Source: a virus (Duplodnaviria > Heunggongvirae > Uroviricota > Caudoviricetes). Taken from it: a stretch of DNA of 15,995 nt. Made by a program: the position numbers. Shown in pieces: positions 12,001 to 15,000 of this stretch (the stretch's first letter is position 1; each line of letters opens with the position of its first letter). Location of the stretch: the IMG/VR virus record IMGVR_UViG_2531839661_000011; one strand, 5' to 3'.

Positions 12001-15000
12001 GAAAGAGGCCCACACCGATCCGCAGCGAGAGCATATAGCCCGACGGCGGGAAATATGCCTTGCGAACTTCAGGATGCTGTAAATAAGACTGTTGACGATA
12101 TGGGAATCAGACGGGATCGGCGACATTACGGGTTATGGAAATAACAGCCAGGTAAATTGGTGAATATACGGCAGGCTGCAATCAGAGCCGAACATAGCGG
12201 CCTCTGTCACCATTATCAGACAGTAGCGGTAGTCCTTCCATCACAGCAAAATGCTACCCACTTCACAGCCCCTTAGAAGCCTCTTCGATGGGGTGAAAAA
12301 TCCCTGAAAAAATGCGCAAAAAACTGCGCAAATCGATCATAAAACCGATCACAAAATCGATCACACAGACCAGCAGAGAAAAGCCAGGTATGACGCGGCT
12401 TGCAGGGGGGAAAGGCCACCGGAAAAAGTGCGCATTTTTCTCAAAAACGAAACGCAACAGGAAGCGCAAAACGAAACCGATACGCGATGATCGAAAAAGC
12501 GCGCAAATTTACCGGATTCGGGTAAGCAATTTTGCCTGATTTGGGCAAAATACGGTGTCGCCGTAACAGTGACATTGACACCAAAACAGTGACACACAGG
12601 AGGGCCGATGACCGAACGTTCACCAACAGAGATAATTCACGGGATTATTGAAGAGCAGGAGGAACGCGAGTTAATCCTCATGATTGAAGAGCAGAGAGAA
12701 CACCAGCGCAAACAGGAGGCCACGCTGCCAGAAAGCGTGAGCGCTGAAAATCAGGCTGATGTGCCGTGATGGTGTCGAACTGAGTAACTTAAAGTCACTC
12801 TGTGACCAGTTTTAAACGAGTTGCAAAAAGAGCCGGAGAAAAACCACGAATCTGGGGTTTTTACTGGCGCGGTGTACACGGTGGAACGCACAGCGTTACC
12901 TGACTTATTGCATTGTAAAAAGTTAGAAAGGCACGGCCTGTAAGATGGGATGTTGTGAGTAGTTTAAAGCTACCCGCAAATTCTTTCGTTGTGCTGGCAC
13001 AGGCGGTTAAACCGTCGGTAACTGGATAATCCCCATTGGGGGAAAAGCTGGCTACACCCCTCACATCTGAGGACTGATAACGCAAAATTGCGTTGGCTGG
13101 CAGAGTGCAAATTTGCACGATGGCCTAACCCATTGATTCTTTCGAAAACCCCCATTGGGGGAGAACGGGGGAATAAACCTGACTCATTGATTCTTCCACA
13201 ATCCTCAATTTGAGGAAGTCGGCGCGGTAACTCACTGAGATTAAAGCAAAGCTCAAATCTGAGATGGCTACATCTCTCACATCTGAGGACTGTTAACCAG
13301 CAAGCCGGAATATATTCACAAACTACGAAATTTTCGTAGTTTAACTTTCATCCAGTACATCCCCGAAAACACGGGTATGTACGGAGTTACCGTTACCAAT
13401 AATTATTCGCGAGGTGATTGTTGATGCGTGATATTCAGCAGGTTCTGGAACGCTGGGGAGCGTGGGCGGCAAATAATCGCGAGAATGTGACCTGGTCATC
13501 CGTTGCTGCCGGATTTAAGGGGATTATTCCGCCAAAGATAACATCTCGTCCGCAGTGCTGTGACGATGATGCGATGGTGATATGCGGGTGCATAGCCCGC
13601 CTTTACCGGAACAATCGCGATCTGCATGACTTGCTGGTTGATTACTACGTGCTGGGGAAAACGTTTATGGCGCTGGCACGTAAGCATGGATGCTCTGATG
13701 GACATATCGGAAAGCGGCTACAGAAAGCGGAAGGGGTTGTTGAAGGCATGCTGATGATGCTGGATGTGAAGCTGGAGATGGATCGGTATGTTGAGCGCGA
13801 TTCAGTGACGGCATAACGCGCATAGAAAACCGCAGTCATGAGGAAACTGCGGTGGAGAAATACGGCTTGCCAATCAATCATGAAAAACGTAATCGCCTGA
13901 TAATTATGCCACGAGACAAAGGACGGTGCACCCTGAATGGTCATAATGACCACTCAGACCATCAAGGCAACTATAACGAACATCGTTACAGTTGGAGCTT
14001 TTACCCCGTTGGGGAAAAGGTATTACGATAATGATGATACCTTTAGCAAAGCGTGAATCATCATTACGGTAGGGATGGTCATAATGACCACACCTCCCCC
14101 CCCCACCGGAACAGGGAGGATGACCTACGAAAATTTCGTAAGTCCTACCCCGCACAAGGATTAAATAATCACTACAAGCGATTGATTAAACTTAATTATC
14201 GCGAATCGCGAGAATTAGCCCCGCAGAAACAAGGAAAGAAGAATTTTACGAAAATTTCGTAAAATCCCCCCACATCTCCCACGGTTGCCCGTTAAGTGCA
14301 AGCGCACAGGCACGACCTCATTAACCAGTTACCAGCGCTCACGCTCAAATATCCACAGGAACGGGGCTAAATCGCATTCTGGCGCAATGTTCACTGTCAG
14401 GGCGAGTATTCACCAGAAAACGTCATACAGGCTTACAGTCGGCTTAAAATTCGATAGGCGGATAACAGGGCGTGGATTGGGAGGCTTACGAAAATTTCGT
14501 AACCCCCTACACAAAAGTGCAGGTTACTACCCGAAAAGTGTAGTGCCATTGCTGGGGGCTAAAAAAAACCGCAGTGTGATAACACTACGGCACGCCACCA
14601 AAGAAACATAACAAGGAATCAGCAATGAGTAATACCTGTAAGCCTTCGGGGTGATTGTAACACATGAGCAATATTTTACCGGAAGCTGTTTTTCACTGGA
14701 TCACGTATCGTTATGGGGATTCCCATATCGGAGAGCATCCACCAGCTTCATAACGGATAACCGAAAAATGATAACGGTTAACCTGGAAAAAATTCCGGTG
14801 AATATTTGCCCTGACAGTTTCCATATCGGCGGCACACCTTAAAAAACCGTGTACACAAGGGTGTACACAATCAAAATCGTCATTACAGAAATCCCAGCAA
14901 TGACGCTCCTTTGATGCAGATACTCAATGAGCAGATTCAACATTGAATAACTCGTAACGCCAATTCTTACTTTTCAGCCTTCACAAATGCCGCCCACTCA

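Follow-up and report, generated by a model that had tools for sequence, protein, structure and literature searches.

We have analysed a non-coding region rich in short palindromes that lies upstream of the Q antiterminator gene in the virus record IMGVR_UViG_2531839661_000011 (15,995 nucleotides, hereafter the window). The window is 100% identical to a ~14-kb island located between yicC and dinD in Escherichia coli O43 RM10042. The island starts with genes for an integrase, a helix-turn-helix regulator, a Rha-family regulator (2580-3299) and a GIY-YIG nuclease, continues with an Icd/Ash-like protein that is accompanied by two C4 antisense RNAs, a D5-type primase, a single-stranded DNA-binding protein (SSB), a ProQ/FinO protein and three PerC homologues, and ends with an acidic open reading frame (ORF), a 650-bp non-coding region, Q (PF06530) and 1.3 kb of non-coding DNA before dinD. 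No capsid or lysis genes were found in the island. Positions 1-15158 of the window are therefore a phage satellite, and not the lambdoid genome that the first-pass annotation of this DNA had taken it to be.

Architecture and distribution of the palindrome array

Positions 13031-13382, between the acidic ORF and Q, had been described as an array of about 11 mini-hairpins, and such an array is indeed non-random. The region contains nine perfect inverted repeats (stem of at least 5, loop of at most 8) versus 2.6 +/- 1.6 in dinucleotide-shuffled sequences, and none of 500 shuffles reaches nine. Inverted repeats with a stem of at least 6 number six versus 0.7 in dinucleotide shuffles, the inverted-repeat density is the highest in the window, and the two strands form far more stable folds than shuffled sequences do, with z scores of -6.6 and -5.6. 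True palindromes, in which G+C-rich arms surround an A(n)T(m) centre, make up most of the elements. The motif CTCA-N(1-4)-TGAG was recovered five times, as reported previously (at 13060, 13204, 13231, 13252 and 13276, with spacers of 4, 3, 1, 4 and 4, respectively), against 0.02 occurrences expected from mononucleotide shuffles and a total of six in the whole 16-kb window. The sequence CCCCATTGGGG is present at 13031 and 13150, CCCCGTTGGGG at 14004-14014, and the 32-nt direct repeat stands as first described (Table 1). Palindromes of the form XXXX-AAATTT-X'X'X'X' had been said to be several; one strict example was found (GTGCAAATTTGCAC, 13105), and the rest have A4T2 or A3T4 centres. The earlier picture of a constant CTCA/TGAG stem with a variable loop, which was thought to speak against a dimer operator, did not survive closer inspection: the five motifs are spread over four different unit types, and within a unit type the geometry is constant (5 bp + 3 nt + 5 bp).

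When aligned by the flanks of their hairpins, the units read on the plus strand [G/C]TAAC-NNN-YTGAT-WTT-YYCGRAA, followed by a perfect hairpin (13-25 nt; usually a 3-nt loop closed by 5-7 bp) and then by AAGTCGGCGCGG. On the minus strand, a typical unit consists of the palindrome, then TTTTCGAAA, and then WATCAR-N4-TTA, which is the consensus for the integration host factor (IHF). All array units are in one orientation. Across 83 arrays, the unit spacing is 54 nt in 57 cases and 48 nt in 34 cases; the 54-nt period was also detected by Tandem Repeats Finder in locus L049, while in the window, whose units are too diverged, the same program found no such repeat.

More than 25 different stems occur at one unit position, and complementarity of the palindromes is kept through changes on both arms. 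Among 37 units, 93.5% of stem cells are paired, compared with 65% after shuffling and 33-55% when the partner is slid, and two-sided changes are seen in 43 cells versus 11.6 in shuffles (0 of 500), with all five pairs affected. Loops vary freely (e.g. TAACGA-ACA/CTT/TTT-TCGTTA). The first-pass annotation favoured RNA or single-stranded DNA hairpins. Symmetric changes in the half-sites of an operator are indistinguishable from stem covariation, and therefore covariation alone is no argument for RNA. Stem mismatches, counted by hand in the alignment of the A2 unit, comprise about five G.T, four A.C and six A.G; they show no strand bias, and thus nothing specifically indicates RNA.

A conserved 93-amino acid (aa) ORF lies ahead of 72 of the 83 arrays; its stop codon is the starting point of the first unit in 44 of these. 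This ORF belongs to no Pfam family and its sole PHROG match is phrog_1561, to which no function is assigned. Its AlphaFold2 model is a helical bundle with a predicted local distance difference test score (pLDDT) of 73, for which no fold match was obtained (E > 2). In the window and in two other Q-type islands the ORF is shortened and only its acidic N-terminal part is kept. A form of 93 to 105 aa (L004, 2190-2507) has a very basic C-terminus (...WKKPERLRR), with the final codons overlapping the first unit of the array.

Of 5,426 complete E. coli genomes, 1,166 have matches to sub-segments of the region, at 80-95% identity and with a median of one place per genome. The matches are mosaic and almost never annotated, and the order of modules differs among loci. 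This search of other genomes bears out an earlier suggestion of a miniature element, in that the array represents a repeated element family common to many genomes. Among 50,697 phage genomes only the gene fragments match, and the array is nearly absent. All ten genomic contexts that were inspected correspond to the right-end non-coding block of satellites; six of these are phage-inducible chromosomal islands that form capsids (cfPICIs), located by phoQ, thiM, mdtJ or a prophage remnant, and four are Q-carrying islands. The array was not found at 43 loci with Q homologues in other genera, and thus it is not a Q accessory. In approximately one-fifth of complete E. coli genomes, the right ends of cfPICI-type and of Q-carrying satellites are marked by the array together with the 93-aa ORF, and the two could be useful as annotation aids. 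A description of the array was not found in the searchable literature on cfPICI cos sites, PICI hairpins and small RNAs of enterohaemorrhagic E. coli (e.g. Esr41).

Homology to rha and roi genes and the IHF consensus

Among phages, the array has a single good match, to the roi genes of JLK-2012 and Lahn2 (92% identity over 49 nt, antisense). The matched stretch encodes residues 42-57 (RHPQIEDCGRINGLG) within the Rha domain, and the minus-strand translation of the window is identical to Roi at 13 of these 16 residues (E = 8e-6). Adjacent units match different roi alleles in ungapped alignments, the unit at 13177 that of JLK-2012 and the unit at 13123 that of VT2-Sakai (Table 1); units of locus L049 match two roi alleles at 40 of 42 and 37 of 42 positions, where the maximum for shuffled sequences is 23 of 42.

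Eight of the nine aligned roi alleles carry a 13-nt palindrome at the same codons, covarying between alleles. Its types are CCTCA..TGAGG, CCTGC..GCAGG, CCTCC..GGAGG and CCCCC..GGTGG, and satellite units are known for each of them. In eight roi alleles the palindrome is followed by a stretch of 9-10 nt (TTTCGAAA-like except in JLK-2012 and HK022) and then by AATCAAT-NNN-TTAGG (ATCAAT-NNN-TTAGG in D6); the 933W allele is degenerate both at the palindrome and at the IHF-type site. More generally, genuine rha and roi coding sequences, namely the roi genes L265-L273 (JLK-2012, HK022, HK620, VT2-Sakai, HK75, CP-1639, PhiR49_2, D6) and the Rha genes L276 and L277 (HK639, Sf101), have a 13-18-nt palindrome at the same position of the Rha domain, covarying between alleles. 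This implies that a cis-acting element is embedded in the rha/roi coding sequence and constrains the residues around the Asn-Phe motif.

A coding region would not be expected to hold perfect palindromes, and those of the satellites surpass their counterparts in genes in this respect (for example, CCCCCATTGGGGG versus CCCCCAATGGTGG). Other palindromes of the array also lie inside regulator genes, namely those of HK639 (SQRNFA), Sf101 (KLNFEL) and the KilAC gene of a Hafnia phage. In the minus-strand frame of the window, the A(n)T(m) centres correspond to codons for Asn-Phe or Asn-Leu, which explains the recurrent "AAATTT" look. Unit spacings are multiples of 3 in 73% of cases, and in several loci one minus-strand frame stays free of stops over 96-146 codons. 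We considered whether the array lies inside an intact roi or rha frame and rejected this possibility: the minus-strand frame lacks a start codon, has no match to a Pfam domain, is not annotated in any genome and contains in-frame stops in several other loci, so the array is probably no longer a gene. The open frame and the multiple-of-3 spacing are most likely a vestige of coding origin.

The IHF consensus is enriched in the arrays. In the EDL933 cfPICI locus, the leader WATCA(A/G)-NNNN-TTA (minus strand) has eight matches versus 0.33 expected (0 of 200 shuffles), six of which are on one strand within ~400 bp, and in other arrays 3-6 matches fall within 400 bp where ~0.3 would be expected per 5 kb. 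Of the matches in the window, one is perfect and one near-perfect (Table 1). The pattern used for finding units itself fixed some of the leader positions, and the logo was remade with the hairpin sequences alone as anchors. In this hairpin-anchored logo, information is high at ATCA and TTA and low at N4. As judged by consensus, an IHF site (WATCAANNNNTTR) adjoins the palindrome in the array just as it does in the roi composite site.

By homology, each unit of ~48-54 nt is evidently a non-coding copy of one short Rha-domain stretch of a temperate-phage rha or roi gene. The internal site of lambdoid roi (HK022; related rha of phi80 and P22) is homologous to the array in sequence, with 81-95% identity over 42-49 nt, and both have a 13-nt palindrome that varies between alleles and, 10 nt later, WATCAA-N4-TTA. 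The two differ in arrangement: the roi element is single and lies inside the coding region, whereas the array is non-coding, tandem, fully symmetric and satellite-borne and combines several alleles. We would describe the array as a novel, tandemly repeated and multi-allelic form of the roi/rha internal regulatory site that is carried by satellites. Tandem units of ~50 bp with a short dyad-symmetric element are also found in sopC of the F plasmid, which consists of twelve 43-bp repeats, each with an inverted repeat. The palindromes of sopC are identical and bind one protein, whereas those of the array vary by unit and match different phage alleles.

A predicted bank of regulator-binding sites and its alternatives

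The structural identification of the array, that is its anatomy, its homology, its covariation, its IHF consensus and its distribution, is secure; protein binding and a decoy or sensor role are what we infer from it. Tentatively, we read the array as a multi-allelic bank of predicted Rha/Roi-plus-IHF binding sites that may serve as a decoy or sensor for helper-phage regulators. Roi reportedly binds a site inside its own gene, close to an IHF site, with IHF stabilising the binding; the segment of roi that the satellites have multiplied is the candidate for this site. In this reading, IHF would bind and bend every conserved site of the array, and DNA-binding proteins of the Rha/Roi family, supplied by a helper phage or by the satellite's own Rha-type protein, would bind the neighbouring palindromes as dimers. 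On a replicating satellite, the array might then act in cis as a multi-specificity decoy or sensor, drawing the regulators and IHF off the auto-regulatory site inside the helper rha or roi gene, or, alternatively, signalling the presence of a helper. The more specific proposal of an "operator sponge", in which a library of operators with IHF sites would soak up helper Rha/Roi and local IHF during replication of the satellite, we regard as doubtful. If true, the sponge would either upset the regulation of a gene whose product harms phage growth or serve as a helper-detection device, and unit diversity would track the diversity of helper alleles; satellites would thus be using DNA as a sponge when in conflict with their helpers.

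It is known that satellites make use of proteins and, in the case of P4, of small RNAs to exploit their helpers; a non-coding DNA array that assembles binding sites for helper regulators out of several alleles would be an interaction of another kind. Such an array would also provide ready natural variants of the rha/roi site and reopen the old question of why rha and roi make phage growth IHF-dependent, a link between these genes and IHF being stated in the titles of two earlier studies (Henthorn & Friedman 1995; Clerget & Boccard 1996).

Several points weigh against the reading of the array as a bank of regulator-binding sites. IHF is abundant in the cell, which makes titration of IHF alone unlikely. 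The position of the Roi and IHF sites within roi is our assumption, the palindrome-plus-IHF segment being presumably, as the obvious candidate, the place where they lie. The 37 units used for the covariation analysis were pre-selected for at least three of five pairs, and many of the sequences are related. The type-B unit and the 19- to 24-nt palindromes have matches that are singly weak (E = 0.008 to 4) and become persuasive only through the shared class of the genes, and a source phage gene was not found for module C (CCTCACATCTGAGG). The array of the window is partly decayed: a single IHF consensus is perfect, one unit is truncated, and so is the upstream ORF. Finally, the location at the 3' end of an operon also fits an RNA 3'-end role or a purely architectural one.

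One explanation in which the array acts at the level of RNA is that it is co-transcribed with the satellite operon and that its plus-strand RNA silences or destabilises the rha/roi mRNAs of several helpers. The strand co-oriented with the satellite genes is antisense to roi or rha in every array examined, identity to several alleles reaches 81-95% over ~42 nt, and the island already uses C4-type antisense RNAs. We nevertheless find this improbable, because conservation is focused on the palindrome arms and on ATCA/TTA and is uneven over the unit, the satellite palindromes have been "perfected" away from the gene sequence, and 3-nt loops are poor start sites for antisense pairing. Neither a promoter nor a terminator delimits a discrete RNA: a scan of the region revealed fewer promoter-like sites than expected by chance. 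A search of positions 12500-15200 against Rfam 15 up to E = 5 returned one chance match only (the C4 RNAs lie elsewhere in the window), and a tRNA scan of the region found none. A boundary element similar to bacterial interspersed mosaic elements (BIMEs) or RIB elements, acting as an mRNA 3' stabiliser, an attenuator or a supercoiling insulator with no link to Rha/Roi, has comparably poor prospects. The array is at the operon 3' end in all loci, each minus-strand hairpin is followed by TTTTCGAAA, and the palindrome-flanked IHF consensus resembles BIME-1, whose L linker carries an IHF site; BIME-1 and RIB/RIP elements share with the array, in addition, a mosaic structure with variable copy number and their position at transcription-unit 3' ends. 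Such an element would leave the match of units to particular rha/roi alleles unexplained, its 5-7-bp triloop stems would be weak RNA hairpins with no U-tract on the transcribed strand, and it is absent from the core chromosome and from phages. Membership in the repetitive extragenic palindromic (REP) or BIME families was rejected: apart from the IHF-consensus linker, which is common to both, BIME-1 has imperfect palindromes of 30-40 nt while those of the array are perfect and of 13-25 nt, with no GTAG and no REP/iREP alternation, and BIMEs are dispersed over the chromosome in high copy whereas the array is confined to satellites and unrelated in sequence to the y, z1 and z2 REPs. The original proposal of nin-type RNA-hairpin terminators upstream of Q, to be overridden by antitermination, is the least probable. 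Short G+C-rich stems upstream of Q are common to the array and to the lambdoid nin region, and hairpin density is high. On the other hand, the stems do not exceed 5-7 bp, the plus strand is devoid of U-tracts, no N-type antiterminator was found in the island, the array is present in cfPICIs that have no Q, and Q homologues of prophages have no array. The earlier remark that most hairpins lack U-tracts can be sharpened, as none on the Q-bearing strand has one. A scan for intrinsic terminators scored none of the array hairpins, whose plus-strand tails are AAGTCGG or AGAACGG; TTTTCG follows short stems on the minus strand only.

Two further explanations were considered. The array may be a neutral relic, a junkyard of antirepressor fragments derived from recombination with helpers and expanded by unequal crossing-over like a minisatellite, with the arms made perfect by template switching within each palindrome. 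Fragments of KilA-N, ant and roi genes lie side by side, the coding-type spacing and the long open minus-strand frame described above are as expected of former genes, module order is shuffled among loci, and the upstream ORF is truncated in the window. This too we consider rather unlikely, given that one gene stretch of ~50 nt alone was kept and in constant orientation, that the IHF-consensus positions are conserved while N4 is variable, that the palindromes are more perfect than in the source genes, and that more than 1,000 genomes have retained the array, as have satellites whose integrases and terminases differ. A packaging region, with the array as a cosB- or pac-like site for the satellite terminase, is less probable still. 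Array and conserved core form the sole large non-coding block in these satellites, the array adjoins terS and terL in cfPICIs, and its multiple IHF sites recall lambda cosB. Yet cfPICIs with unrelated TerS families (L050 versus L051) have the same right end, the Q cassette sits between array and core in the window, and unit number and order vary; no lambda-type cosN (GGGCGGCGACCT, up to two mismatches) was found in or near the region, and inspection of the HK97 cos region revealed no similar array.

Flanking features and the right end of the satellite

The features of the array and of the adjoining DNA are collected in Table 1. Fragments of a KilA-N gene (sense) and of an ant gene (antisense) adjoin the array, which makes the non-coding block a patchwork of helper-phage antirepressor gene pieces.

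Table 1. Features of the palindrome array and of its surroundings in the window.
Feature	Position	Strand	Description
Acidic ORF, 53 aa	12608-12769	+	Shortened form of the conserved 93-aa satellite protein, phrog_1561 (function not assigned)
KilA-N antirepressor gene fragment	12830-12887	+	88-95% identity to KilA-N genes (HK620, Stx phages, others); contains a degenerate terminator-like hairpin, AAAAACCACGAATCTGGGGTTTTT
ant antirepressor fragment, 35 nt	12953-12987	-	97% identity to ant of phage CP-1639, sense on the minus strand
Truncated unit GGTAACTGG...TCCCCATTGGGGGA	13013-13043	-	Palindrome of the VT2-Sakai roi type; without IHF-type core
Module C, copy 1, GGCTACACCCCTCACATCTGAGGACTGATAAC	13050-13081		Hairpin CCTCA-CATC-TGAGG; first copy of the 32-nt direct repeat; also seen as a module in arrays of cfPICIs
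Palindrome AACGCAAAATTGCGTT	13079-13094	-	Encodes SQRNFA; 19 nt identical inside the Rha genes of HK639, 2B8 and phiv205-1
Perfect palindrome GTGCAAATTTGCAC	13105-13118	-	Minus-strand RANLH, an Asn-Leu variant of the SQRNFA-type motif; longer versions in other satellites, e.g. CCAGAGTGCAAATTTGCACTCTGG
Unit A1	13123-13161	-	Homologous to a VT2-Sakai roi segment (34/42); order: IHF consensus AATCAATGGGTTA (13126-13138, minus strand), TTTTCGAAAG, palindrome CCCCCATTGGGGG (13149-13161)
Unit A2	13177-13216	-	Homologous to JLK-2012/Lahn2 roi codons 42-57 (38/42 nt, 13/16 aa); order: near-IHF site AATCAATGAGTCA (13180-13192, minus strand), palindrome TCCTCAATTTGAGGA (13202-13216); offset from A1 54 nt (repeat D3, 13124-13162 vs 13178-13216)
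Unit B	13217-13263	-	Trailer AGTCGGCGCGG, then TAACTCACTGAGATTAAAGCAAA, then GCTCAAATCTGAG; ~81% identical to the KLNFELCYKNNELQ segment of the Rha genes of Sf101, POCJ13 and CUS-3
Module C, copy 2	13266-13297		Second copy of the 32-nt direct repeat, 3 mismatches
23-nt palindrome AAACTACGAAATTTTCGTAGTTT	13320-13342		Minus strand encodes YENFV; 24/24 match inside the KilAC antirepressor gene of Hafnia phage Pocitis76, also in Vi II-E1 and pKp383; relatives of the same palindrome family, TACGAAAATTTCGTA, three times downstream of Q (14126-14140, 14247-14261, 14487-14503)
Q cassette	13345-13932	+	Q coding sequence 13424-13816 (PF06530, E = 1e-51); between array and right-end core
Conserved right-end core	13933-14042		Common to cfPICIs; TGGTCATAATGACCA, TAACGAACATCGTTA, CTTTTACCCCGTTGGGGAAAAG
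Second right-end core block	14712-14727		With TATGGGGATTCCCATA

A Q antiterminator is an unusual cargo for a satellite. The cfPICIs have no Q cassette at the junction of array and core, and similarity of the window to cfPICIs ends at 13344 and restarts at 13933; the Q gene with ~116 bp downstream resembles a cassette inserted between array and core. After circularisation of the island, transcription from the Q promoter region could cross the attachment site (att) into int.

The right-end core is shared by cfPICIs and Q-type islands despite their different integrases and terminases (e.g. L003, 2762-2950). It contains TGGTCATAATGACCA, TAACGAACATCGTTA, CCCCRTTGGGG and TATGGGGATYCCCATA; its first palindrome has a compensatory variant, TGGTGATAATCACCA, and a second copy of TGGTCATAATGACCA is located at 14076. 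The core may be a cis-acting site, possibly for packaging, in which case terminase-less Q-type islands might use the packaging machinery of cfPICIs or of a helper. A metagenomic contig (L242) that was considered as a source of packaged ends proved to be an integrated copy.

Elsewhere in the window, two C4-type antisense RNAs (Rfam RF01695; 69 and 73 bits) are encoded on the plus strand at 5335-5422 and 5815-5903, in or adjoining the Icd/Ash-like gene, an arrangement that suggests, by analogy, an immunity module similar to immI of P1 in a satellite. The non-coding DNA downstream of Q contains a run of nine C (14097-14105, within CCTCCCCCCCCCACC at 14094-14108), which could undergo slipped-strand variation. 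Lastly, in two records of "Campylobacter phage" (MG065686.1 and MG065691.1), 230 bp match the E. coli DNA directly upstream of dinD at 97% identity, and these E. coli sequences are probably the result of contamination or misassembly.

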